DNA from: a virus
Taxonomy: Duplodnaviria; Heunggongvirae; Uroviricota; Caudoviricetes
Length of the DNA stretch: 12,295 bases
Reading direction: 5' to 3' (one strand)
IMG/VR virus record: IMGVR_UViG_2529292729_000023
Of this stretch, positions 1,201 through 12,295 are shown piece after piece. The notes beneath the pieces are model-generated. The model was not told the origin of the DNA. It was given only the letters and a program-made list of their open reading frames with translations, and did no database searches. Every line of letters starts with the position of its first letter. Position 1 is the stretch's first letter. A program made the translations under genes and the position numbers.

Positions 1201-1230
1201 CAGGAAAAAACAAAACCCGCGAAGCGGGTT
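1201..1230 (-). terminator. rho-independent terminator ending the leftward R-M transcription unit
   Basis: On the minus strand: stem AACCCGC / GCGGGTT (plus 1214-1230), 3-nt loop, then TTTTGTTTTTTCC. It sits about 75 nt downstream of the endonuclease stop (1303). The plus-strand version has no U-tract. Confidence 0.55.
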
Positions 1231-1302
1231 AGTAAAAATGTACTGAAGTCAATGACGTGCCATCACAGTTAAAATATGACAGACTCTATTTACGTAGAGA
1301 TG

Positions 1303-1504
1303 TCAGACTGCAAGATCCAAGGGAAGATCAGAAATATCCTTTAATCTTTTACCATTAACCATCACGGAAAGCATGTCAGCTGCATCGCTGAGCCCCAGTA
1401 TTTCAACTGCTGATATAAGTTCATAAAGCGCAAAATGATACACGCAATCTATATCACCAGTACCAAGAGCAATAGACGCCAGACGACTTGGAGTAGGCTC
1501 AGCA
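1303..1504 (-). pseudogene. restriction endonuclease gene, C-terminal fragment (67 codons) separated from its 5' part by IS10
   Basis: Minus-strand frame reads ...AEPTPSRLASIALGTGDID...LPLDLAV-stop immediately outside the IS10 outside end. It is in frame with the N-terminal fragment once IS10 and one copy of the 9-bp duplication are removed. Confidence 0.8.
1496..1504. repeat. 9-bp target-site duplication GGCTCAGCA (left copy)
   Basis: Identical 9-mer directly abuts both IS10 ends (1496-1504 and 2834-2842). It matches the IS10 target preference NGCTNAGCN. Confidence 0.9.
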
Positions 1505-1550
1505 CTGATGAATCCCCTAATGATTTTGGTAAAAATCATTAAGTTAAGGT

Positions 1551-1619
1551 GGATACACATCTTGTCATATGATCAAATGGTTTCGCGAAAAATCAATAAT
1601 CAGACAACAAGATGTGCGA
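1551..1619 (-). ncRNA. IS10 RNA-OUT antisense RNA (pOUT transcript), approximate coordinates
   Basis: Placed from established IS10 biology: about 69 nt, transcribed outward from element bp ~115, overlapping the transposase start (ATG at 1612). Coordinates are mapped from memory of the element, not seen as a distinct signal. Confidence 0.45.
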
Positions 1620-2820
1620 ACTCGATATTTTACACGACTCTCTTTACCAATTCTGCCCCGAATTACACTTAAAACGACTCAACAGCTTAACGTTGGCTTG
1701 CCACGCATTACTTGACTGTAAAACTCTCACTCTTACCGAACTTGGCCGTAACCTGCCAACCAAAGCGAGAACAAAACATAACATCAAACGAATCGACCGA
1801 TTGTTAGGTAATCGTCACCTCCACAAAGAGCGACTCGCTGTATACCGTTGGCATGCTAGCTTTATCTGTTCGGGCAATACGATGCCCATTGTACTTGTTG
1901 ACTGGTCTGATATTCGTGAGCAAAAACGACTTATGGTATTGCGAGCTTCAGTCGCACTACACGGTCGTTCTGTTACTCTTTATGAGAAAGCGTTCCCGCT
2001 TTCAGAGCAATGTTCAAAGAAAGCTCATGACCAATTTCTAGCCGACCTTGCGAGCATTCTACCGAGTAACACCACACCGCTCATTGTCAGTGATGCTGGC
2101 TTTAAAGTGCCATGGTATAAATCCGTTGAGAAGCTGGGTTGGTACTGGTTAAGTCGAGTAAGAGGAAAAGTACAATATGCAGACCTAGGAGCGGAAAACT
2201 GGAAACCTATCAGCAACTTACATGATATGTCATCTAGTCACTCAAAGACTTTAGGCTATAAGAGGCTGACTAAAAGCAATCCAATCTCATGCCAAATTCT
2301 ATTGTATAAATCTCGCTCTAAAGGCCGAAAAAATCAGCGCTCGACACGGACTCATTGTCACCACCCGTCACCTAAAATCTACTCAGCGTCGGCAAAGGAG
2401 CCATGGGTTCTAGCAACTAACTTACCTGTTGAAATTCGAACACCCAAACAACTTGTTAATATCTATTCGAAGCGAATGCAGATTGAAGAAACCTTCCGAG
2501 ACTTGAAAAGTCCTGCCTACGGACTAGGCCTACGCCATAGCCGAACGAGCAGCTCAGAGCGTTTTGATATCATGCTGCTAATCGCCCTGATGCTTCAACT
2601 AACATGTTGGCTTGCGGGCGTTCATGCTCAGAAACAAGGTTGGGACAAGCACTTCCAGGCTAACACAGTCAGAAATCGAAACGTACTCTCAACAGTTCGC
2701 TTAGGCATGGAAGTTTTGCGGCATTCTGGCTACACAATAACAAGGGAAGACTTACTCGTGGCTGCAACCCTACTAGCTCAAAATTTATTCACACATGGTT
2801 ACGCTTTGGGGAAATTATGA
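1612..2820 (+). CDS. tnpA: IS10 transposase (402 aa)
   Basis: Track ORF 1612..2820; product MCELDILHDSLYQFCPELHLKRLNSLTLACHALLDCKTLTLTELGRNLP... matches the IS10-Right transposase as I recall it, full length. Confidence 0.95.
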   Translation: MCELDILHDSLYQFCPELHLKRLNSLTLACHALLDCKTLTLTELGRNLPTKARTKHNIKRIDRLLGNRHLHKERLAVYRWHASFICSGNTMPIVLVDWSDIREQKRLMVLRASVALHGRSVTLYEKAFPLSEQCSKKAHDQFLADLASILPSNTTPLIVSDAGFKVPWYKSVEKLGWYWLSRVRGKVQYADLGAENWKPISNLHDMSSSHSKTLGYKRLTKSNPISCQILLYKSRSKGRKNQRSTRTHCHHPSPKIYSASAKEPWVLATNLPVEIRTPKQLVNIYSKRMQIEETFRDLKSPAYGLGLRHSRTSSSERFDIMLLIALMLQLTCWLAGVHAQKQGWDKHFQANTVRNRNVLSTVRLGMEVLRHSGYTITREDLLVAATLLAQNLFTHGYALGKL

Positions 2821-2833
2821 GGGGATCTCTCAG

Positions 2834-2842
2834 GGCTCAGCA
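2834..2842. repeat. 9-bp target-site duplication GGCTCAGCA (right copy)
   Basis: Second copy of the 9-mer, directly after the IS10 inside end. Confidence 0.9.
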
Positions 2843-3519
2843 GTAACAACCATTACATGAGGGAGATTTCCCTTACGGTTGCGAATAAGATTTAATGCCT
2901 CAGAACGAGCATTCTGGGCCCGGTCGCTTCTTATTGTCCATTTGCAGGAAATACTTGCGTGTAATATTGGTTTCCCACCATTCGAACTCCTGAGAGCTGA
3001 CATGCGGGTAACAGAATCATCCACCAGTAATTCAGGACTGTTGATAACTTGATCACATTCAGGTTCTCTTTCAACAATAATATCTGGTGAAATCGTATAA
3101 TCACTCCCCAGTGCAGCAGCTAGCTGAGGATTACTTTTTGCAGCACTATCCAATGCTATAAGATGGGCATATTGTTCATATTTAGCTATCTCTAATCTGT
3201 TTCTACCAGAAACCTGATGTACATTCCATTTTCCAGGGCGTAAGTGGCTGAGTTTAAAAAAGGTTTTTTCTATAAACTCTGCGCAGATACTCTCAAACTG
3301 ATTACCAGATGTTTGCCCTGCAACACGTTCACCAATCGTTTCAGCCTGCAAGAAGCGAGCAATTTCTCTTGCTATAGCTTTACTGTTTTTGTTACTGCTA
3401 TCTGCGTTACTAACAACTCCGGCAGTATTAATTGTGAGCGTATTCAGTAACAATTGGGCATGAAACTCCTTTCTGGCTTCAGCAAAACCAACTATGCTGT
3501 CAACCAAATCTCCATTCAT
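2834..3519 (-). pseudogene. Type II restriction endonuclease gene, N-terminal fragment (229 codons), truncated by IS10; PD...SxK...E active-site pattern
   Basis: Track ORF 2830..3654 trimmed to ATG 3519 (AAGGAAA 7 nt upstream, 13 nt after the methyltransferase stop). Frame runs ...HVMVVTAEP then hits a stop one codon inside IS10. Contains SPD (D146), SCK (S191/K193) and E207. Reconstructed intact gene would be 292 codons. Confidence 0.8.
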
Positions 3520-3532
3520 TTCTGGATTTCCT

Positions 3533-4657
3533 TCAGGCTGCTTGACTATTCTTACTGATGTTATTCTTATACCGTCCCTGCAAAACTCCATACACATATT
3601 GTGCGATTTTTGCCGCAAATAGCGGTGGAACAGCATTCCCGATCTGCTTTGCAATCTCAGTTTTTGAACCGGTAAAAATGAAATTATCAGGAAAAGACAT
3701 TAATCTCGCTGCCTCACGATGAGTTATTGGCCGATCCTCTTCCGGATGTAAATATCGCCCTTTCTCCGGTTTGAAAAACTCAGTACGAATCGTTACTGAA
3801 GGTCTGTCCCACCACAGACGTCCAAACAAATCGGTCCCTCCAGATTTCTTTTTTAGCCAGCACGCCGGGGTTATATCAGGTCTTTTTTTCTGTAAATCGA
3901 AACGGTTACCTCCTGGTGGAACCGCTTTATATCGCTCCAGAGAAACAGGTGTGGGATTACGCCCAAAATGTAAGTTCAGCGGAGGAAGTTCATTACGAAT
4001 ATCAGTTCCAACAGGAGCAGGTAAGTCACCAATTGCATCACGCGTACAGACCCATTCAGGCAAAGCGACATCCTTATCAGGGGAACGATGCGTTGGTGCT
4101 GGCGGGAACGCCGGAATACTATGCACATCGAAGAGTTCTCGTTTGATACCGATTGCTATCGTTCGTTTTCTTGTCTGAGGTACTCCATAGTCAGCAGTAT
4201 TCAACACCATTGGATTAAGCAGAATAAAGCCCATGGATTTCGCTCTAAACGTAATGTCCGCAAACTCATCGCTTATCAGCAATCCGGGGACATTTTCCAT
4301 GACGAACATACAAGCCCTTGAACGCTCAATGACATCCATATAAGGCTCCCACAATGCTCTTCGGTGATCACCATAACGATTCTTATTCAATAAACTGAAT
4401 CCCTGACACGGGGGGCCACCTATGACCACATCAGCCTCAGGAACAGTATTGCTGGATGCCCACTCCTCAATATTTGCCTGAACTCCATGCAAACCAAAAT
4501 TGGCATTGTAGGTATTTATAGCTGCAGCATTATTATCAATAGCAAGGATACTTTCAAAGTAGTCAGACATCTCTCCATGAAGAAAACCATAAGATAATCC
4601 ACCTGCCCCACAAAAGAGGTCTATCACTCTGAATTTATTTAATTCTTTCATCCGCAT
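3533..4657 (-). CDS. DNA (cytosine-5)-methyltransferase, intact (374 aa)
   Basis: Conserved C5-MTase motifs all present: FCGAGG (I), GGPPCQGFS (IV, catalytic Cys), ENV (VI), QTRKR (VIII), GNAVPP (X). GAGG sits 7 nt upstream of ATG 4657. Confidence 0.9.
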   Translation of the reverse strand: MRMKELNKFRVIDLFCGAGGLSYGFLHGEMSDYFESILAIDNNAAAINTYNANFGLHGVQANIEEWASSNTVPEADVVIGGPPCQGFSLLNKNRYGDHRRALWEPYMDVIERSRACMFVMENVPGLLISDEFADITFRAKSMGFILLNPMVLNTADYGVPQTRKRTIAIGIKRELFDVHSIPAFPPAPTHRSPDKDVALPEWVCTRDAIGDLPAPVGTDIRNELPPLNLHFGRNPTPVSLERYKAVPPGGNRFDLQKKRPDITPACWLKKKSGGTDLFGRLWWDRPSVTIRTEFFKPEKGRYLHPEEDRPITHREAARLMSFPDNFIFTGSKTEIAKQIGNAVPPLFAAKIAQYVYGVLQGRYKNNISKNSQAA

Positions 4658-4815
4658 CCATATGCCTCAGATTAATGTTGAGCGTCTTGCAGGACGCGTA
4701 ATGTTAACTGGGGCTTTTCTCTATCTGCCTTTTGGTGTTCATGCCTGAGACAGATAGCCTCAAGCACCCGCAGCAATTCTACTTAACTCTCCTTTTCCCG
4801 CAAACCGTTTTTACC

Positions 4816-4837
4816 CGATATGGGAATTCCCATATCG
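4816..4837. repeat. perfect 22-bp palindrome CGATATGGGAATTCCCATATCG
   Basis: Read directly: left half CGATATGGGAA, right half is its exact reverse complement. Lies between the 34-aa peptide gene and the methyltransferase gene; no U-tract on either strand. Confidence 0.7.
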
Positions 4838-4845
4838 TAATGAAT

Positions 4846-4950
4846 TCAGTTCCCTAGTCGATCCATCAAAAACACAACCAGGCAGTAAACGCCCACAACA
4901 GCAACAACAGCCAGCGCACCTTCCATTGCCAGTGATATATCATCCGACAT
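4846..4950 (-). CDS. small hydrophobic single-pass membrane peptide (34 aa)
   Basis: ATG 4950 preceded by AAGGAGGG; product MSDDISLAMEGALAVVAVVGVYCLVVFLMDRLGN. Below the ORF-track size cutoff. Confidence 0.4.
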   Translation of the reverse strand: MSDDISLAMEGALAVVAVVGVYCLVVFLMDRLGN

Positions 4951-4991
4951 ATTCCCTCCTTTGGTGTTAATCCCGGCGAACGTTTTTACCC

Positions 4992-5069
4992 TCACCGACA
5001 AATAACATATACTAAAAAAGCGATAGCCATAGCAACGCCTGTAATTGCAAATGCTTCAGGCCAGTTCAT
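4992..5069 (-). CDS. small hydrophobic membrane peptide (25 aa), likely translationally coupled to the DUF551 gene
   Basis: ATG 5069 overlaps the DUF551 stop as ATGA; AGGAGGT lies 6 nt upstream; product MNWPEAFAITGVAMAIAFLVYVICR. Shares a GV...VY.. core with the 34-aa peptide. Confidence 0.4.
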   Translation of the reverse strand: MNWPEAFAITGVAMAIAFLVYVICR

Positions 5070-5701
5070 TGGCGCACCTCCTGCGGCGGTTCCGGTAGTG
5101 GCATCCAGTGAGTTGCCTGCTCAATGCCATTACCCGGCTTAATCGTTGCTTGTCCTCGCCGAAAGGTACTTCCGGTATTGCGTGCGGAGCATATTAGTGG
5201 CTCAACCAGATCACTATCGAAATTCACCGAAATAAGTACGTTCTGATTCTTTTTCGGCATTCGCTCACTACAGCTTATCCAACCATCCGGAATTACCGGA
5301 GAGTTGCCATTTACATCGAAGTTTGGTTCTGCGTCCTGAACTAGGAGGATGTAACCATTCTTGGCTGTATCAAGTTCTAACGCCTCGGTTACGGTACCGA
5401 AATAGCGATTACCTAAATCCGCATCACAAGTGCTTACATCAATGGAAACCTCCATGCCTTCGATTAATTCTGGCAAGTTGTAAGTTTGGCTTACAGGCTC
5501 TGCTTCCAGTGATGCCAGTGCAATTCGTGCCAGCTCACGCACAACTTCAGGGGGCGCGTAACGGTCATTCAGGTCATCCCACAGGCGTAGCATGTTATCG
5601 CTACCAGGGTGAACATCCTCGTTAGTTCCGGCAAGCGCACTAATAACCTCATCGGCTGCTTCAATAATTTTCTGTGCCTGTTCTCTGGTAATAGTGGTCA
5701 T
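5066..5701 (-). CDS. DUF551-domain prophage protein (211 aa)
   Basis: Track ORF; C-terminal DGWISCSERMP...ATHWMPLPEPP is the pattern I associate with DUF551. AAGGA 7 nt upstream of ATG 5701, which overlaps the upstream stop as ATGA. Confidence 0.75.
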   Translation of the reverse strand: MTTITREQAQKIIEAADEVISALAGTNEDVHPGSDNMLRLWDDLNDRYAPPEVVRELARIALASLEAEPVSQTYNLPELIEGMEVSIDVSTCDADLGNRYFGTVTEALELDTAKNGYILLVQDAEPNFDVNGNSPVIPDGWISCSERMPKKNQNVLISVNFDSDLVEPLICSARNTGSTFRRGQATIKPGNGIEQATHWMPLPEPPQEVRQ

Positions 5702-5907
5702 TTGTTAATCCTTAAAACTTTATGCCCTGGCGCAAAAGCACGTGTTTTGTCTTTGCTTATTCGCCAGCCATCCTTACGTGCCTCTTTTGCACAGCCAGCC
5801 CATGACGTACCGATATATTCACCGAAGTCTGGTACTGGATATACACCTTCCGTACACTGGCGGCAGTCACAATAGAGATGCATGGTGTAACTTGCGGCAA
5901 TAGCCAT
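5698..5907 (-). CDS. small Cys-rich hypothetical protein (69 aa)
   Basis: Track ORF 5698..5979 trimmed to ATG 5907 (AAGGAGAG 6 nt upstream). Product MAIAASYTMHLYCDCRQCTEGVYP... with a CxC-x2-C cluster. Confidence 0.55.
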   Translation of the reverse strand: MAIAASYTMHLYCDCRQCTEGVYPVPDFGEYIGTSWAGCAKEARKDGWRISKDKTRAFAPGHKVLRINK

Positions 5908-5908
5908 A

Positions 5909-6271
5909 TCACTCTCCTTTAGTACGCAAGTGGTTTTTCCAGCGGTTTTGCGCCGCGCTGGGCTTTTTGCAAAAACCACAATCCATCATCCCGTAATGTT
6001 TCATTAACCCCATCCGTCGGTTGCTGAGTCTCACCCACTGCCAGACGCCAGGACCGTTTCTGCGAACTAATAGGATTTTTGCTTTACGGTTTTTCATCGC
6101 TTTGCTCTCCTGCGTTTCTTTGCTGCACGTCTCGCCGCCGCAATACCGGTACGACGTTTCGATACCGGAATGATGCTGCCAGCCATCAGGACATGCGGCA
6201 TAACTGTTAAGGCTGCCCCATGAAACCAGACCAGATAAGGCGATATCAGCATTACTCACTCCAGCAACCAT
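5909..6271 (-). CDS. hypothetical protein (120 aa) with CGGETC and CGFC Cys pairs; start uncertain, may be two smaller genes
   Basis: Frame open over 363 nt, but ATG 6271 has no Shine-Dalgarno. Internal ATG 6097 has AGGAGA upstream and would give a 62-aa product. Another frame gives a 52-aa ORF (6252 to 6094) with GGAG upstream and an ATGA junction at 6097. Confidence 0.4.
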   Translation of the reverse strand: MVAGVSNADIALSGLVSWGSLNSYAACPDGWQHHSGIETSYRYCGGETCSKETQESKAMKNRKAKILLVRRNGPGVWQWVRLSNRRMGLMKHYGMMDCGFCKKPSAAQNRWKNHLRTKGE

Positions 6272-6326
6272 TCTTTGGTTAATTCAGTCATTTTTCATTA
6301 CCGCCCTTTCGGGCGGCCTCCTGACA

Positions 6327-6539
6327 TTAATCGTTGTGATAACTCATAGCTTCATTTGCAGCATCAACTGGATCAACCTCCCTCCAGCAATAATTTGGGT
6401 CGGCTCCTTCAGGCGTCCACGGTTCTAATTCATTTTTTGCCGCATTCTCATCGCCAGTAATTTTAAAAATCTGCTCAGAGAATTTTCTTGCCCACTCGTT
6501 ATATTTTTCCGCATTAATGGCTTTCTGTGTATTTAACAT
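6327..6539 (-). CDS. hypothetical protein (70 aa)
   Basis: Track ORF; GGAGG 7 nt upstream of ATG 6539; acidic product MLNTQKAINAEKYNEWARKF... Confidence 0.6.
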   Translation of the reverse strand: MLNTQKAINAEKYNEWARKFSEQIFKITGDENAAKNELEPWTPEGADPNYCWREVDPVDAANEAMSYHND

Positions 6540-6589
6540 AAATATACCTCCAGTTAAGGATTAGATTTTATTTACAGCGCTAAATTTAT

Positions 6590-6946
6590 TTATTCAGTTC
6601 TGGATTTTGTCACCCTGCGTATCCGCGCTTTCGCGTTACGCTCAATCTGAATTAACTTTTCTATATTTTTCCGCCTTTCCTGTTCCTCCAGGCGCAATAG
6701 TTTTACATCATCTGCCAGCCTGGTTTCTCTTTTCGCAACAGAGAGCATCCAGTCAAATGGCTCCACAACTGCACCGCAGATTTTACAGCGGACCTGACGC
6801 TCTTTTTCGTCAACCCGGACAGAGGCGTGATGACAATATGGCCTTTCCGATGGCTCATAAAGAAAATTAACCTGATTACGTGGGTCATCCTCTTTTACCG
6901 GAAATAAAACAATATTACTTAACTCATCTTCTGGTTTTATTTCCAT
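6590..6946 (-). CDS. hypothetical protein (118 aa), putative zinc-ribbon plus charged coiled-coil tail
   Basis: Track ORF 6590..7003 trimmed to ATG 6946 (AAGGAGAGG upstream). Contains YCHH...RCKICGAV, then a Lys/Arg/Glu-rich C-terminus. Confidence 0.6.
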   Translation of the reverse strand: MEIKPEDELSNIVLFPVKEDDPRNQVNFLYEPSERPYCHHASVRVDEKERQVRCKICGAVVEPFDWMLSVAKRETRLADDVKLLRLEEQERRKNIEKLIQIERNAKARIRRVTKSRTE

Positions 6947-7003
6947 GCACCTCTCCTTTGATGCGAATGCCAGCGGCAATTGAAGCCTGATAGCTAATTT
7001 CAC

Positions 7004-7399
7004 TCACAGCACCACCTCCTGAAAATTCCCCTGACAGAACGCCAGTACACGCTGCATAACTTCGCTATTTCGGCACTCACTGCAAATTATGTTCTGATGC
7101 CTGTCATAGCGGCGTATTTCTCCGTCTGGTAACTTTCGAATCAATGTCTGGTCGGTTGTTTTCTCCGCTGCCTTACGCCATACGCGATACACCTGTTCTG
7201 ATGCAAAAACACCGTATTTACCGGGCATGTATAAATCGCCACAAGCCAGTACATCCACAAGGCAACGTCTGACTGAATGCCAGCCTGCTCCCGTCGCTCT
7301 CTCCAGTTGTGATATCGTCATGCGTTCATTTTTGCGTACCAACCCGATAATTCGGGCCTTCAGTTCTTCACGCTGTTCGTGTGTAAAAGGTTTCGCCAT
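7004..7399 (-). CDS. hypothetical protein (131 aa), possible winged-helix N-terminus
   Basis: Track ORF 7004..7414 begins at TTG; ATG 7399 has GGAGG 5 nt upstream. Product MAKPFTHEQREELKARIIGLVRKNERMTISQLERATG... Confidence 0.6.
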   Translation of the reverse strand: MAKPFTHEQREELKARIIGLVRKNERMTISQLERATGAGWHSVRRCLVDVLACGDLYMPGKYGVFASEQVYRVWRKAAEKTTDQTLIRKLPDGEIRRYDRHQNIICSECRNSEVMQRVLAFCQGNFQEVVL

Positions 7400-7414
7400 A
7401 AGCGCCTCCGGCAA

Positions 7415-8185
7415 TCACTTTTCCGACACAATACGACCGGATGAATCGACAATCTGCCGAACAATATCCCGGTGCTTGTTCAGTTCCCGCAGCGCGGCGC
7501 AGACACGCTCCCACTTCTGAACCTGACCTTTTGCCCGGCGCAGCTCGCGGTTAGCCACATGCAGCGATGGTAAAATCAGCCCATCCGGATGCTTTCTGGT
7601 GAACAACGGCTGTGACTGCACTGTGACCGCCACACTTTCAGTTTTTATTTCTTCCTGTGTCGTCGTTTCCTGGACTGGTAACGCAACACCTGTTGGCTGA
7701 GGAAAGGCTTTACCATCGGTTTCCGCTACGGATGCAGCTTCCGGCTCTGCCGGTAAATCAGCGCCCGGTATGCAGTAACGAAATTTACCGTTCTGATTTA
7801 CGCGTGCCAGGCGCCCCGTTGCTGTTACGACCGCCAACGTGGAAGCAACCTTGCGAATGCTAACACCGAACTTATCCGCCAGTTCCTCACACGTTTTAGC
7901 CCCATCCTGACAGATAAACTCAATCATCATGTCCGCGGTAACTTTTTGTTCGACCTCCCCGGTCAGCACATCCGGTACTTCAGACTGTGCTGGCTGCTCT
8001 TCGGTTACCCCGGATTCACCTTCACCAGCCAGAAACCAGGTGTGACCCGTTTTATCAACAACGCCATTTTTTTTGAGTTCCCACAGTTCGTTGAGAACTT
8101 CTTCACGGCTGATATCAAGCCGCGCCGCCAGTTCAACAGAATTGGCTTTACCCATCGCTTTCAGTGCATGCAATACGGTTTCCAT
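7415..8185 (-). CDS. hypothetical prophage early-region protein (256 aa) with two winged-helix-like segments
   Basis: Track ORF; GGAGG 8 nt upstream of ATG 8185. Two similar segments: [37 protein letters not shown] and [42 protein letters not shown]. Confidence 0.65.
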
Positions 8186-8214
8186 TAAAACTTCCTCCGG
8201 ATAAAAATTACTTC

Positions 8215-8955
8215 TCAGTTCCTGTGCTGGCTGACGTTCGGACGCCAGCTCTCCCAGTTAAACGTCACCCAGCGACCACCGTTCATGGACATGCGGTCCA
8301 TCACCCGCTCGCCGAGAAGTGTATTCATCGCTGCATGGTTAAGATTTGTCAGCATCCCCACACTGAGTAACGATGCCGTTCTGCGGTCAACAATCTGATT
8401 CAGCGTGACCTGCTCATTACGCGTATCCCGTTGCATGCCAATTTCATCCAGTACCAGCAGGTCAACGCCACACAATCCCTGCAAAAATTTTTCGCCCGAG
8501 TTTTTGTTGTCGTAGCTGCCATGTAACGCCAGCATCACATCCGCCACTGTTATCACAATCACACTGCGACCTTTCGCCAGAAGGTGGTTGCCAATAGCCG
8601 CCGCCAGGTGGTTTTTTCCTGTGCCAGGCCGGCCACTGAACACAAAATTCGTACAGCCGCCTTCCAGCTCTGCCGCAATGGATTTCGCCTGACTCAGGGC
8701 ATGGCGCTGACCATCGTTCTGCACCCGGTAGTTACCGAACGTACACTTCCGGTGAAGCGGCTGGATACCGGAGCGGTTAATGATTTTTTCAACCCGCGTC
8801 TGATGATTCAGACGATTAACCTCCTCGCTTCGCTTACGCCCTTCAGCAAGCTGCCATTCCCGCCACTCCGTCACCGTACGGTACGGAGGGATTGCATCCT
8901 GCGGCACAAATCTGCTGACTCTTGCCAGAACACCACCTGACGTAATGTTTTTCAT
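8215..8955 (-). CDS. DnaC/IstB-like AAA+ helicase-loader (246 aa)
   Basis: Walker A-like [15 protein letters not shown] and Walker B LLVLDEIG; positioned directly downstream of the O-like initiator, as in lambdoid replication modules. Confidence 0.8.
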
Positions 8956-8961
8956 GATGCG

Positions 8962-9939
8962 CTACCCCCTGAAACCCGGCGGAATTTCGGTATCCGGTTC
9001 AGAAATATGATTCACGCAACGCTGCGCGGGACCACGCCACAGTCGAATAACCAGTTCATCCCATTTCTCACGGAGTTTTTCCGGGCTCTTGATGTTTTTT
9101 ATCCAGAACGGATCCCGTTGTGCCCGGCTGAACATTTCGCAAATTTGTCTGTGACTTCTTCCATCCAGCATCCGCATTGTGCGCACGTCATTGGCCCACG
9201 CCGTCCAGTTGGGCTCTTTCGGTCGCGTGATCTCACCATCGTCACTGGCAGCCTGTTCGTACAGGTTTACAACCCGCCCCCAGATCCACTGCGCACATGT
9301 CAAATCCTCCCGGGTTCCCCACTGGCGTTTTTTCACGCTGAACACAACAGCATCAGGATGGCGGGTTAAAAACGCCTGTTCAGCCGTCAACTCGTCCGGT
9401 TGCGAAGCGTCCGGACAAGAGAGTTTTTTATTCTCTGTTGTATTCTCTGTTGTATTCTCTGTTGTATTCTCTGTAGGATCATCGGGCCATTTTGACCTGA
9501 TGACATTGGGCCGTTTTGAACCAATGGAACGTTTCATTTTGACCTCTTCCATCGTGTCATTTTGACCTGATGGAGTGGCGCATTTTGACCCGATGGATTC
9601 GTTCACTTTGCCATCATCTAAAAGCGCGCTATCGTAGTTAATTGTGTAAAAATTAGTCATATCACGCTTCGATTTATTGAGCTTTTCGCTACGCAAAAGC
9701 CCCAGCGCTTTCAGACTTGCAAACGCACGCTTTAACGTTGACTCTGACCAGAACGGAAACTGTTCCAGCCATTGTTCCGTTGTGTTGTAAATCCAGCGAA
9801 CGCCATCACATTCCATGCCGGAACTGGTATCCCTCAACCAGTAATGCAGTTGCTGCAACACAATGGCTTCGTTTAAACCAATCTTCATCGCCAGCTGTGT
9901 GTTTATAACCAGCGGGCGTTCAGCAAAAAGAAGGCTCAT
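8962..9939 (-). CDS. phage replication initiator, O-like (about 325 aa)
   Basis: Track ORF 8962..9981 starts at GTG 9981; first ATG is 9939 (MSLLFAERPLVINTQLAMKIGLNEAIVLQQLHYW...). Two families of direct repeats lie inside the coding sequence, as for the lambda origin inside gene O. Confidence 0.75.
   Translation of the reverse strand: MSLLFAERPLVINTQLAMKIGLNEAIVLQQLHYWLRDTSSGMECDGVRWIYNTTEQWLEQFPFWSESTLKRAFASLKALGLLRSEKLNKSKRDMTNFYTINYDSALLDDGKVNESIGSKCATPSGQNDTMEEVKMKRSIGSKRPNVIRSKWPDDPTENTTENTTENTTENKKLSCPDASQPDELTAEQAFLTRHPDAVVFSVKKRQWGTREDLTCAQWIWGRVVNLYEQAASDDGEITRPKEPNWTAWANDVRTMRMLDGRSHRQICEMFSRAQRDPFWIKNIKSPEKLREKWDELVIRLWRGPAQRCVNHISEPDTEIPPGFRG
9431..9474. repeat. tandem 12-bp repeat TTCTCTGTTGTA, about 3.7 copies, in frame (encodes TENT repeats)
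   Basis: Read directly: units at 9431-9442, 9443-9454, 9455-9466, partial 9467-9474. Translates on the minus strand as TENTTENTTENTTEN. Confidence 0.85.
9488..9612. repeat. six iteron-like direct repeats, core CATTTTGACC, 23-24 bp period; candidate replication origin
   Basis: Cores at 9488, 9512 (CGTTTTGAACC), 9535, 9558, 9581, 9604 (CACTTTGCC). Followed by an AT-rich stretch at 9619-9660. Confidence 0.65.
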
Positions 9940-10441
9940 AATTCCATCCGGCTTTTTGTTGGTACTGGTGACGATAGGCACGCTTGAAAGCGATTGCTTT
10001 TTCTATAAGCTCGTCTGTCTCACGTTCCACAACAGCTGGATCTGCAAAAAGCAGCCCGGACTCCACCACATCGCCATATTCTTTGTTTAACCCGGCAATC
10101 ATGTACGTAATGCTTTTTCCGTCAGTAATTTCGCGGTACAACCTGAAATCACTAATCCGGATAGCCTCCATAATTGCCGGAATCAGCGCCGTGAATTTTT
10201 CACGCTTATCCCTGGTGTCGATAGCCTTCCAGCGTTCGAATATCTTCACCCGGTTAACGCCAAGCGCACGCTGATCAACCCCGCCATCATCAAGCGTGAC
10301 ACGCTGAACATCGATGTTCGGGCGTTCCTGTAGAGCCCAGAAGGCTTCAGTAATTAATATCGTCGCCTGCTCCTGCGTCATTCCTGGTCTGCATACCCAG
10401 GCATCCAGAGCCTCGCAAACCTGTTCAGGTGTGATTTTCAT
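9920..10441 (-). CDS. YdaT-like protein in the CII-equivalent position (173 aa)
   Basis: Track ORF; second gene of the leftward early operon. Product MKITPEQVCEALDAWV...KFTALIPAIMEAI... resembles YdaT-type prophage proteins as I recall them. Confidence 0.6.
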   Translation of the reverse strand: MKITPEQVCEALDAWVCRPGMTQEQATILITEAFWALQERPNIDVQRVTLDDGGVDQRALGVNRVKIFERWKAIDTRDKREKFTALIPAIMEAIRISDFRLYREITDGKSITYMIAGLNKEYGDVVESGLLFADPAVVERETDELIEKAIAFKRAYRHQYQQKAGWNYEPSFC

Positions 10442-10703
10442 TGTTCACCGCCAGTAATTCATTCGCTGTACTCTTACGTCCACAAGGCAGGCCATCGGTT
10501 GGGTTAGGGTAAATATCTGGTCGGAGCTCGTGGGGGGTGACAGTCCACGCCATAATCTCACATAGTTGTAAAACCCTTGATGCAGGGACCTGTTGCCCAT
10601 TAACCCATCGACATACAACCTGCTGTGGCAACCCAATCAAGCGAGCAACACCCGCTTGGGATAACCCTATTTGGCGAATTTTATTTTTTAAACATTTATG
10701 CAT
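10425..10703 (-). CDS. Cro-like HTH regulator (YdaS-like), 92 aa
   Basis: Track ORF 10425..10739 starts at GTG; ATG 10703 has GGAG 8 nt upstream. HTH segment LSQAGVARLIGLPQQVVCRW. Divergent from the repressor gene. Confidence 0.65.
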   Translation of the reverse strand: MHKCLKNKIRQIGLSQAGVARLIGLPQQVVCRWVNGQQVPASRVLQLCEIMAWTVTPHELRPDIYPNPTDGLPCGRKSTANELLAVNNENHT

Positions 10704-10730
10704 ATCGCTAACTCCAATCAATCGACACCA

Positions 10731-10804
10731 CTTATACACTTTAAAAGTTACACTATCAACACTTTCAAGCTGATTGTGCTGGCTACACTTTTTTTGTGTA
10801 AAAT
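10731..10804. promoter_or_regulatory. divergent promoter-operator region of the immunity switch
   Basis: Three ACACTTT-containing sites (10736, 10759, 10785) fitting CACTT-N4-AAGTG half-site symmetry. Leftward promoter on the minus strand: -35 TTGATA (10754-10759), 17-bp spacer, -10 TATAAG (10731-10736). Rightward -10 TAAAAT (10799-10804) ends 7 nt before the repressor ATG. Confidence 0.45.
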
Positions 10805-10810
10805 GAATGC

Positions 10811-11218
10811 ATGAAGCGAATGACCACTCTTGAAATAACCACGTACCGGATAAAACTGGTGCTGGAAAAAACAGGGCTTAAGCAAGCAGAACTAGCCCGC
10901 AGAATAGGTGTTGCCCAACAATCGGTCCAAAAGTGGGTTCATGGCATCACAAGCCCATCAATGGCTAATCTTGATAAACTTTCTGAAGTAACAGGATTCC
11001 CTCCATATTGGTTTATGTTGCCACCAAGTGAGGACGAACAGATTGTGGTACCTGACACAATGAAAATAGGTCCGAAGCAAAGAGAGCTACTTCAGACATT
11101 TGGTGCATTCCCAGAGGAAGAACAGGGACAAATGCTTCAGGAGATGAAAGACAAAAAAGAGTTAATGGAGCGCACAATTGAAAGATGGCTCGCTGCCCGG
11201 AAAGGGCATCGAGCATAA
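10811..11218 (+). CDS. XRE-family HTH repressor (CI-like / PaaR-like), 135 aa, no S24 peptidase domain
   Basis: HTH GLKQAELARRIGVAQQSVQKWVHG; divergent from the Cro-like gene; no Ala-Gly / Ser-Lys autocleavage module in the C-terminal half. Confidence 0.8.
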   Translation: MKRMTTLEITTYRIKLVLEKTGLKQAELARRIGVAQQSVQKWVHGITSPSMANLDKLSEVTGFPPYWFMLPPSEDEQIVVPDTMKIGPKQRELLQTFGAFPEEEQGQMLQEMKDKKELMERTIERWLAARKGHRA

Positions 11219-11247
11219 TGACCACCATACACAGACGGAGGTGTGCC

Positions 11248-11436
11248 ATGAATACGGCCCTTTCACCAATGGTTTCTGAGTTCGAAACCATTGAACAAGA
11301 AAACAGTTACAACGAATGGCTGCGTGCGAAAGTAGCAGCGAGCCTTGCAAATCCGCGCCCAGCAATTCCCCATGACGAGGTTGAGCGCAGAATGGCAGAA
11401 CGCTTTGCTAAAATGCGCAAGGAACGGAGTAAGTAG
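11248..11436 (+). CDS. antitoxin partner of ParE (PaaA-like), 62 aa
   Basis: Track ORF 11185..11436 trimmed to ATG 11248 (GGAGG 6 nt upstream). Stop lies 3 nt before the toxin ATG. Product MNTALSPMVSEFETIEQENSYNEWLRAKVAASLANPRPAIPHDEVERRMAERFAKMRKERSK. Confidence 0.65.
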   Translation: MNTALSPMVSEFETIEQENSYNEWLRAKVAASLANPRPAIPHDEVERRMAERFAKMRKERSK

Positions 11437-11439
11437 TAA

Positions 11440-11727
11440 ATGTTACCCGTGTTATGGCTTGAAAGCGCAGATACCGACCTAGATGATATAACTAGTTATA
11501 TTGCTCGTTTCGACATAGATGCGGCAGAACGCTTATGGCAGCGATTAAGGGGGTGTGTGCTGCCGTTATCCGAACACCCGTATTTATACCCACCAAGCGA
11601 CAGAGTACCTGGCTTGCGTGAGATTGTAGCTCACCCTAACTATATAATTCTTTACCGTGTAGCCACTTTAAGCATTGAGATCGTGAGTGTAGTACACGCC
11701 AGACGCCAATTCCCCAAGCAGAACTAA
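11440..11727 (+). CDS. parE: ParE/RelE-family type II toxin (95 aa)
   Basis: Product MLPVLWLESADTDLDDITSYIARFDIDAAERLWQRLRG...PGLREIVAHPNYIILYRVATLSIEIVSVVHARRQF follows the ParE-family pattern. Confidence 0.8.
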   Translation: MLPVLWLESADTDLDDITSYIARFDIDAAERLWQRLRGCVLPLSEHPYLYPPSDRVPGLREIVAHPNYIILYRVATLSIEIVSVVHARRQFPKQN

Positions 11728-11739
11728 CCCTTTCACAGG

Positions 11740-11767
11740 GCCGTCTCATCTCGAGGCGGTTTTTGTT
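11740..11767 (+). terminator. rho-independent terminator after the repressor-antitoxin-toxin operon
   Basis: Stem CCGTCTC (11741-11747) pairs with GAGGCGG (11753-11759) including one G-U pair; 5-nt loop; then TTTTTGTT. Confidence 0.6.
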
Positions 11768-11778
11768 GCTCACAACCT

Positions 11779-11814
11779 AACTTTATAAGTGTTGACATAA
11801 TAACTTTAAAAGTG
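11779..11814. promoter_or_regulatory. second operator-like cluster with a -35-like TTGACA
   Basis: AACTTTATAAGTG (11779-11791) and AACTTTAAAAGTG (11802-11814), 23 bp apart, flank TTGACA (11792-11797). Same CACTT-N4-AAGTG-type motif as at 10736. No convincing -10 hexamer seen. Confidence 0.35.
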
Positions 11815-11998
11815 CATCCTTGTTTCACCAACCCACCCCATTCAACAGAACGCAGGGCAATACTTCGAGTTACCCGGCAGTGGTCAGGGGTTAAGTAGCC
11901 AGCCCGAGGCGTATGAACATGACGGCGGGAACACTTTGTATAACAGCGCAGCAGGTTTTTAGTTCCGCGACCCGGCGTTAAGGGTAAATGAGGTCAAC

Positions 11999-12151
11999 AT
12001 GGATACTATCGATCTTGGCAACAACGAATCTCTGGTATGTGGCGTGTTTCCCAATCAGGACGGCACATTCACCGCCATGACGTATACCAAAAGCAAATCG
12101 TTTAAAACCGAAGCTGGCGCGCATCGCTGGTTAGCAAGAAACTCCGACTAA
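11999..12151 (+). CDS. small hypothetical protein (50 aa)
   Basis: ATG 11999 with GAGG 5 nt upstream; product MDTIDLGNNESLVCGVFPNQDGTFTAMTYTKSKSFKTEAGAHRWLARNSD. Below the ORF-track size cutoff. Confidence 0.5.
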   Translation: MDTIDLGNNESLVCGVFPNQDGTFTAMTYTKSKSFKTEAGAHRWLARNSD

Positions 12152-12162
12152 TGAGGTTGACG

Positions 12163-12295
12163 ATGGAATTTAAAGATTTACCTCCTTCAATCCAGGAGAT
12201 TGCAGCACACACACTTCGTCATCGTCTGAACGAACTTGAATTGGAATCGGTAACGAAAAAAGACACTGATAATATGGCTCGTAATGTGCGCGATA
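12163..12295 (+). CDS. hypothetical protein, 5' part only (runs off the right edge)
   Basis: ATG 12163 with GAGG 6 nt upstream; MEFKDLPPSIQEIAAHTLRHRLNELELESVTKKDTDNMARNVRD... continues beyond the window. Confidence 0.45.
   Translation, partial: MEFKDLPPSIQEIAAHTLRHRLNELELESVTKKDTDNMARNVRD

Follow-up and report, generated by a model that had tools for sequence, protein, structure and literature searches.

A probable CP-933P-like lambdoid immunity operon combining a DicA-like repressor with a PaaA2-ParE2 toxin-antitoxin pair

The stretch of phage DNA analysed here (12,295 nucleotides; termed the window) very probably holds a heteroimmune, CP-933P-like E. coli lambdoid immunity operon, composed of a repressor, PaaA2, and ParE2, and equipped with its own operators. 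The sequences compared here establish the gene content, the homologies, the mosaic boundaries, and the way in which operators covary with repressor alleles; operon status, CI-like regulation, toxicity, and addiction are taken from the CP-933P homologue only. The system itself is already published and experimentally characterised in CP-933P (= Sp12), a cryptic prophage of E. coli O157:H7, where paaR2-paaA2-parE2 was described by Hallez et al. 2010 (as cited in PMC8630535) and dissected by Jurenas et al. 2021 (PMC8630535). As judged from these comparisons, novelty is confined to a heteroimmune set of repressor and operators, here combined with a toxin-antitoxin (TA) cassette of the CP-933P type.

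In the explanation that we favour, a non-cleavable CI-analogue repressor would be transcribed leftward together with PaaA2 and ParE2, from a weak PRM-like promoter up to an intrinsic terminator, the latter two genes taking the position that rexA-rexB have in lambda. The repressor would bind three sites over PR/PRM in the divergent region and two at a PL-like promoter, thereby silencing the leftward early operon as well as the one for YdaS (Cro) and YdaT (CII), and its own operon, hence the TA pair, would stay expressed in the lysogen. Protease-labile PaaA2 would neutralise ParE2 through direct binding, and loss of the immunity region would free ParE2, making the pair an addiction module that stabilises this region. 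Derepression would proceed via an antirepressor or a stochastic switch and not via RecA-mediated cleavage.

Regulator, antitoxin, and toxin genes lie head to tail on one strand, as in three-component TA systems, and are divergent from ydaS-ydaT, as in a lambdoid immunity region. The initial annotation had described this layout, with gaps of 29 nt (11219-11247) and 3 nt (11437-11439) followed by a terminator, and both the ORF coordinates and folding agree with it; the CI position that it gave to the repressor, opposite a Cro-like gene, is confirmed by the Pfam YdaS match and by the annotated context. The ydaS-like gene, whose product is termed a "transcriptional regulator" by PGAP in identical genomes, overlaps the YdaT-family gene by 17 nt. 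Within the operon, the 29-nt gap contains only a Shine-Dalgarno sequence, GGAGG, 6 nt upstream of the antitoxin ATG (11242-11247), and no promoter-like or terminator-like site was detected between the three genes by sequence reading and a consensus scan. A longer antitoxin reading of 83 aa from ATG 11185 was ruled out by the homology to the PaaA2 protein and to CP-933P DNA, which starts at 11247/11248, and by the GGAGG preceding 11248. The start of the repressor gene is ambiguous, 10811 or 10820: PGAP places it at 10820 in identical genomes, 9 nt later (132 aa), and both ATG codons are invariant among three alleles. For all three genes, dN/dS is 0.05-0.35 relative to diverged alleles, which suggests that purifying selection acts on each of them. 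In RefSeq, the repressor is labelled "helix-turn-helix domain-containing protein" and the antitoxin "hypothetical protein" in some genomes or "RelB family antitoxin" in others; PaaR-like (DicA-type) repressor, PaaA2 antitoxin, and ParE2 toxin would be apt names.

Table 1 Genes and candidate regulatory elements of the immunity region.
Feature	Position	Strand	Size or sequence	Basis and remarks
HTH immunity repressor	10811-11218	+	135 aa	ORF list and Pfam
PaaA2 antitoxin	11248-11436	+	62 aa	PDB, Pfam, EDL933 alignment
ParE2 toxin	11440-11727	+	95 aa	PDB, Pfam, EDL933 alignment
YdaS/Cro-like HTH gene	10425-10703	-	92 aa	Pfam YdaS_toxin E = 1e-10, HTH_3; first gene of the PR operon
YdaT-family gene	9920-10441	-	173 aa	Pfam YdaT_toxin E = 1e-5; position of a CII analogue
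PR-like promoter (putative)	10731-10759	-	TTGATA (10759-10754)-17 nt-TATAAG (10736-10731)	Sequence reading; would serve the ydaS/ydaT operon
Candidate operator OR-A	10736-10750		ACACTTTAAAAGTTA	In PR spacer, touching the -10
Candidate operator OR-B	10759-10773		ACACTTTCAAGCTGA	Abuts PR -35, just upstream of the weak PRM -35
Candidate operator OR-C	10785-10799		ACACTTTTTTTGTGT, dyad ACAC/GTGT	In PRM spacer, touching the -10
PRM-like -10 hexamer (putative)	10799-10804	+	TAAAAT	Sequence reading
Intrinsic terminator (predicted)	11741-11767	+		Folding; t_imm analogue ending the immunity operon
OL/PL-like region	11778-11820	+		Sequence reading, motif scan, inverted repeat; after the terminator
Candidate OL operator	11778-11792		TAACTTTATAAGTGT	
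Candidate OL operator	11801-11815		TAACTTTAAAAGTGC	
PL-like promoter (putative)	11792-11797, 11815-11820	+	TTGACA-17 nt-CATCCT	Reads into the DUF1391/dicB/exo/xis/int side

The two downstream genes are readily classified. The antitoxin matches the solved PaaA2 of E. coli O157:H7 (PDB 3zbe and 5cw7; E = 4e-34), shares 59 of 63 residues (94%) with PaaA2 of EDL933, and scores well above the cut-off of the Pfam PaaA2 family (PF21217; E = 1e-19, 70.2 bits against a cut-off of 27). No HTH or RHH match was found in its 62 residues with Pfam, and the protein can be assigned by sequence to the PaaA2 family, predicted to have no DNA-binding domain, like PaaA2 of CP-933P, which for that reason does not autoregulate (PMC8630535). 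Similarly, the toxin aligns with the solved ParE2 (PDB 5cw7_B; E = 1e-57) and with the Pfam ParE_toxin family (PF05016; E = 8e-16, 58.8 bits, cut-off 23), and 86 of its 95 residues (90.5%) are those of EDL933 ParE2; it differs from ParE2 by six internal substitutions, all conservative and in the C-terminal third, and by three extra C-terminal residues. These matches identify it by sequence as a probable ParE2 of the ParE toxin family. At the DNA level, the cassette is ~93% identical to that of CP-933P, and dN/dS values of 0.12 (antitoxin) and 0.09 (toxin) relative to the EDL933 genes indicate that both are maintained as coding genes. Toxicity and neutralisation by the cognate antitoxin are established for the CP-933P proteins only (PMC8630535).

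The repressor is related to PaaR2 in part. Its residues 81-135 align with PaaR2 residues 69-123 (55 aa, 53% identity, E = 4e-16), whereas its N-terminal 80 residues gave no significant alignment with PaaR2; the homology is thus not full-length. PaaR2 (123 aa, beginning MQKKE) has no Pfam match, in contrast to the clear HTH_3 of the window's repressor, which at residues 14-68 is the only Pfam domain type found there. By sequence, the repressor therefore does not appear to be a PaaR2 orthologue over the DNA-binding domain. The initial annotation had likened the layout to the paaR-paaA-parE systems of E. coli O157 prophages; upon alignment of the proteins the likeness is clear for PaaA2 and ParE2, given their identities to the EDL933 proteins and the PDB matches, but extends only to the C-terminal 55 residues of the repressor. 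Within the paaR family, which also includes PaaR1 of the PaaR1-PaaA1-ParE1 system of CP-933M, this comparison covered PaaR2 of CP-933P.

The N-terminal domain matches the DNA-binding domains of the 434 and P22 repressors (PDB), and the Gifsy-1/2 repressors and phage repressors annotated as DicA show ~34% identity over 78-83% of the length, pointing to an XRE HTH of the DicA/Gifsy/434 type. The NCBIfam DicA model (NF007257) covers positions 8-131 of 135 (E = 1.6e-17), but the score of 63.6 bits lies below the curated cut-off of 101, and we accordingly describe the protein, on sequence grounds, as DicA-like and not as DicA. It has the architecture of DicA and GfoR/GtgR: an XRE HTH, ~135 aa, no S24 domain, and the cI position. 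Elsewhere, in some E. coli genomes, OkiPb01690 for example, similarity to the repressor gene is confined to its C-terminal half (81.5%; window 11008-11218), and in others to 10883-11196; such patterns point to shuffling of domains at the linker that joins the HTH to the C-terminal domain.

A Pfam search (E ≤ 0.01) detected no Peptidase_S24 in the repressor, as had been noted earlier. Since the protein has only 135 residues and no such C-terminal domain, unlike cleavable repressors of the Lambda CI/LexA type, RecA-stimulated self-cleavage is excluded on domain grounds, which bears out the proposal that induction probably does not depend on it. PaaR2 likewise has no RecA-autocleavage peptidase motif (PMC8630535), and it is unresponsive to mitomycin C according to earlier work cited there. 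Other repressors of this architecture are inactivated by different means: LexA-controlled antirepressors act on GfoR/GtgR (PMC3121763), and DicA is inactivated by Rem, the DicA switch also flipping spontaneously (PMC10448788). By analogy with these proteins, we infer that an antirepressor or spontaneous switching is the likeliest induction route.

In CP-933P, PaaR2 is a functional CI analogue acting on PR, PRM, and PL, and its mRNA is leaderless; it competes with YdaS, the Cro analogue, for repeats in the divergent region overlapping PR and PRM, and both proteins also repress a PL-like promoter with related operators (PMC8630535). The switch is bistable (PMC8630535). In the window, a 15-bp element, ACACTTTWAAAGTKW, occurs in five copies in the regulatory regions, three in OR and two in OL, and sites of 15 bp with the pattern ACACTTT(W)AAAGTKW are the probable targets of the repressor. 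A scan of the window allowing up to 3 mismatches gave 10 strand-matches at these 5 sites plus one stray (2.3 expected); no shuffled sequence out of 200 reached 10, a comparison with some circularity, the consensus having come from the window itself. The three OR candidates lie in a divergent region of 107 bp (10704-10810). OR-A is kept in the loci of TUM1881 and 23CRST049. OR-B, which starts 23 bp after OR-A, is the weakest match, with 3 mismatches, and has a related site in 23CRST049. OR-C is kept in two other loci except for one base of the right half-site (G in the window, A in the others). In addition, a 31-nt inverted repeat, 81% complementary, pairs 10734-10764 with 11787-11817.

The distribution of these sites follows the type of repressor. 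The operator pattern is also found in 23CRST049, and a four-way alignment shows that the OL segment is conserved in the three loci with a window-type repressor; in CP-933P, with a repressor of the PaaR2 type, it is replaced by unrelated sequence with homologous DNA on both flanks, and the motif scan detected no copy of the motif in the CP-933P regulatory regions. This covariation of operator and repressor alleles is the best evidence available for the role of the protein as immunity repressor and for the candidate sites.

It also bears on another reading of the HTH protein, namely a dedicated TA regulator, i.e. a split-off DNA-binding domain of an antitoxin, with prophage immunity supplied by a different gene. 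TA systems with a separate regulator do exist, e.g. omega-epsilon-zeta, and the HTH shows weak similarity to the HipB and MqsA antitoxins. However, copies of the motif lie both at the divergent PR-like promoter and, 1 kb away, at a PL-like promoter, and they change along with the repressor allele; over its full length, the protein is closest to the phage repressors CI, DicA, and those of Gifsy; the ORF list contains no other cI-like gene in the 12-kb window; and PaaR2 is an established CI analogue (PMC8630535). We thus regard a dedicated TA regulator as highly improbable, and consider the protein further as the immunity repressor.

The exact operators, the promoters, and the leaderless start are inferred. 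Promoters were placed by eye and with the help of the OR/OL inverted repeat, and the terminator was placed by folding; a consensus promoter/terminator scan listed none of PR, PL, and the terminator. The PRM -35 is poor and the PL -10 (CATCCT) is weak, and TAAAATGAATGCATGAAGCGAATGAC at the PRM-like -10 is invariant among the three alleles. Because the TAAAAT hexamer ends 6 nt before ATG 10811, a leaderless repressor mRNA starting at or near the A of this codon is plausible, as for paaR2 and cI. The terminator consists of a 7-bp G+C-rich hairpin (11741-11759) followed by TTTTTGTT, with a predicted fold of -15.3 kcal/mol (z = -2.95; none of 200 shuffled sequences was as stable); both 23CRST049 and TUM1881 retain hairpin and T-run, the TUM1881 stem having one A-C mismatch. 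YdaT of CP-933P activates a PRE-like promoter, like CII (PMC8630535, PMC9986795), and its operator, TTGATTN6AATCAA, has no meaningful match in the window. As the ydaS/ydaT junction also contains no short inverted repeat, a PRE/YdaT site could not be assigned.

Rfam gave no match within the operon or close to it. Downstream of the PL-like promoter, a non-coding leader (11830-11990) is almost invariant in four loci, including that of the heteroimmune CP-933P, and is far better conserved than the neighbouring operator segment. It has no Rfam match and its folding does not exceed that of shuffled sequences (z = +1.25); it could be a nut-like or a recombination-joint sequence.

The segment 10400-11800 is 100% identical to prophages of E. 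coli 2012C-4227 and 07_3636, and the identity to 2012C-4227 is 99.9% over 4660-12295. There, the context is that of a lambdoid prophage, with O/P-like replication genes, a Q-like antiterminator, a holin, and tail genes on one side, and DUF1391, dicB, an exonuclease, xis, and int on the other. A paaA-parE cassette is present in ~646 of 5426 complete E. coli genomes, the whole arrangement of the window in only ~23 of the 5426. In all four genomes sampled, as well as in phage Evi, a 372-nt gene of the PaaR2 type lies upstream of the cassette.

DNA homology with EDL933 spans 11247-11988 and starts one base before the paaA2 ATG. In 23CRST049, a window-type repressor (86% identity) is combined with a PaaA/ParE pair of just 68% and 67% amino acid identity, respectively, and the repressor module and the TA cassette therefore assort independently. 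This second PaaA/ParE allele, located at positions 3264-3736 of the locus compared, is found in 88 of 5426 genomes, and megablast gave no match to it in O157:H7. In a further locus, that of strain 12690, the parE2 homologue (1495-1734) is annotated with 240 nt, compared to 279 nt elsewhere, and the DNA match ends at window position 11661; it may be a truncated toxin beside an intact antitoxin.

A cassette that forms a separate evolutionary unit, with a breakpoint at the paaA2 start and, in 23CRST049, another PaaA/ParE allele downstream of a repressor of the same type, could also be an autonomous two-gene module with its own promoter, outside repressor control and without a three-gene transcript; the persistence of PaaA2-ParE2 expression in both states of the CP-933P switch (PMC8630535) would fit as well. 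Against such autonomy, the 29-nt gap offers a Shine-Dalgarno sequence and neither a promoter-like site nor a terminator between the genes, PaaA2 could not autoregulate without a DNA-binding domain (PMC8630535), and operon status and PaaR2 control of the homologue have been reported (Hallez 2010, as cited in PMC8630535). We judge it very unlikely, and retain the three-gene operon under repressor control.

More tentatively, paaA2-parE2 may be a conserved core flanked by two exchangeable immunity segments, one made up of OR, cro, and the repressor DNA-binding domain and the other of OL, permitting an immunity swap without loss of the TA pair. Two conserved stretches, the C-terminal domain of the repressor and the near-invariant PL leader, would serve as the joints for recombination. 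This modular arrangement is a possibility that we would still bet against; if true, it would allow a published proposal, in which recombination of the immunity region is policed by the TA pair, to be tested in a natural setting.

The three-gene operon had been proposed to tie TA expression to lysogenic maintenance. The operon and the CI-like PaaR2 of CP-933P (PMC8630535) agree with this proposal, but the link is a loose one, because transcription of the TA genes in CP-933P is appreciable in either switch state, and neither state showed ParE2 activity (PMC8630535). This lack of ParE2 activity in steady state is compatible with a pair that serves mainly in anti-phage abortive infection or exclusion, RexAB-like, instead of in addiction to the immunity region; the rexAB position and expression from the lysogenic promoter point in the same direction. 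However, neither antitoxin nor toxin matches a PADLOC defence model (the PADLOC matches of the repressor being generic HTH), no phage-defence data were found in the literature on paaA2-parE2 examined, and the CP-933P locus is addictive, stabilising plasmids via post-segregational killing (PMC8630535). An anti-phage function as the main role is thus unlikely in our view, and addiction is preferred.

Elsewhere in the window, a complete IS10 (1504-2832) encodes a transposase of 402 aa (1612-2820), is bounded on either side by IS10-like terminal sequences, and has an Rfam RNA-OUT match on the minus strand (1550-1619, 98.8 bits). Directly abutting it on the minus strand is a type II restriction-modification pair (2830-4657) composed of an NgoMIV-family endonuclease (274 aa) and a C5 DNA cytosine methyltransferase (374 aa). 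The block 1230-4660 stands in place of the hokD segment of the otherwise 99.9% identical 2012C-4227 prophage. Rfam also gives a minus-strand match to sok antitoxin RNA at 4588-4769, with 70.8 bits against a gathering score of 59. The match extends across the breakpoint in homology at 4660 and has the start codon of the methyltransferase in its overlap; it looks like a hok/sok remnant from which the hok part was displaced by the restriction-modification block.

The locus is an ordinary one and matters little beyond annotation. It does offer a natural heteroimmune partner for the CP-933P switch, having the same TA cassette and repressor C-terminal domain together with a different DNA-binding specificity and different operators. 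It could be used to dissect which parts of PaaR2 set operator choice versus oligomerisation, and to examine whether the TA pair constrains recombination of the immunity region.

Among known systems, CP-933P is the closest. Gene order and spacing are the same, and in both the operon diverges from ydaS-ydaT, with the DUF1391/dicB/exo/int side lying downstream; a PL/OL-like region comes after the terminator, the repressor has no S24 domain, and the -10 is placed for a possible leaderless repressor mRNA. The two differ in the N-terminal DNA-binding domain of the repressor, where no similarity is detectable, in the YdaS-like and YdaT-like proteins (25% and 31% identical to CP-933P YdaS and YdaT, respectively), in the divergent region (107 bp versus 97 bp in CP-933P; PMC8630535), in the operators (ACACTTTWAAAGTKW-type in the window, GTTTAGTAA-type repeats in CP-933P), in the YdaT site, which the window does not have, and in the length of ParE (95 aa versus 92 aa). 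DicA of Qin and GfoR/GtgR of Gifsy-1/-2 resemble the window's repressor in size (~135 aa), in combining an XRE HTH with a short C-terminal domain and no autocleavage domain, and in their cI position opposite a Cro-like gene; in contrast to it, they are not followed by a PaaA/ParE pair. With lambda cI-rexA-rexB, the operon shares a repressor and two accessory genes placed behind PRM and ending at a terminator before PL, and paaA2-parE2 of CP-933P likewise take the place of rexA-rexB (PMC9986795). The candidate sites OR-A, OR-B, and OR-C mirror OR1, OR2, and OR3 over the divergent promoters, and related sites are present at OL, of which just two were recognised in the window. Beyond the HTH class, however, the repressor shows no homology to CI and contains no S24 domain, and the accessory genes are a toxin-antitoxin pair.
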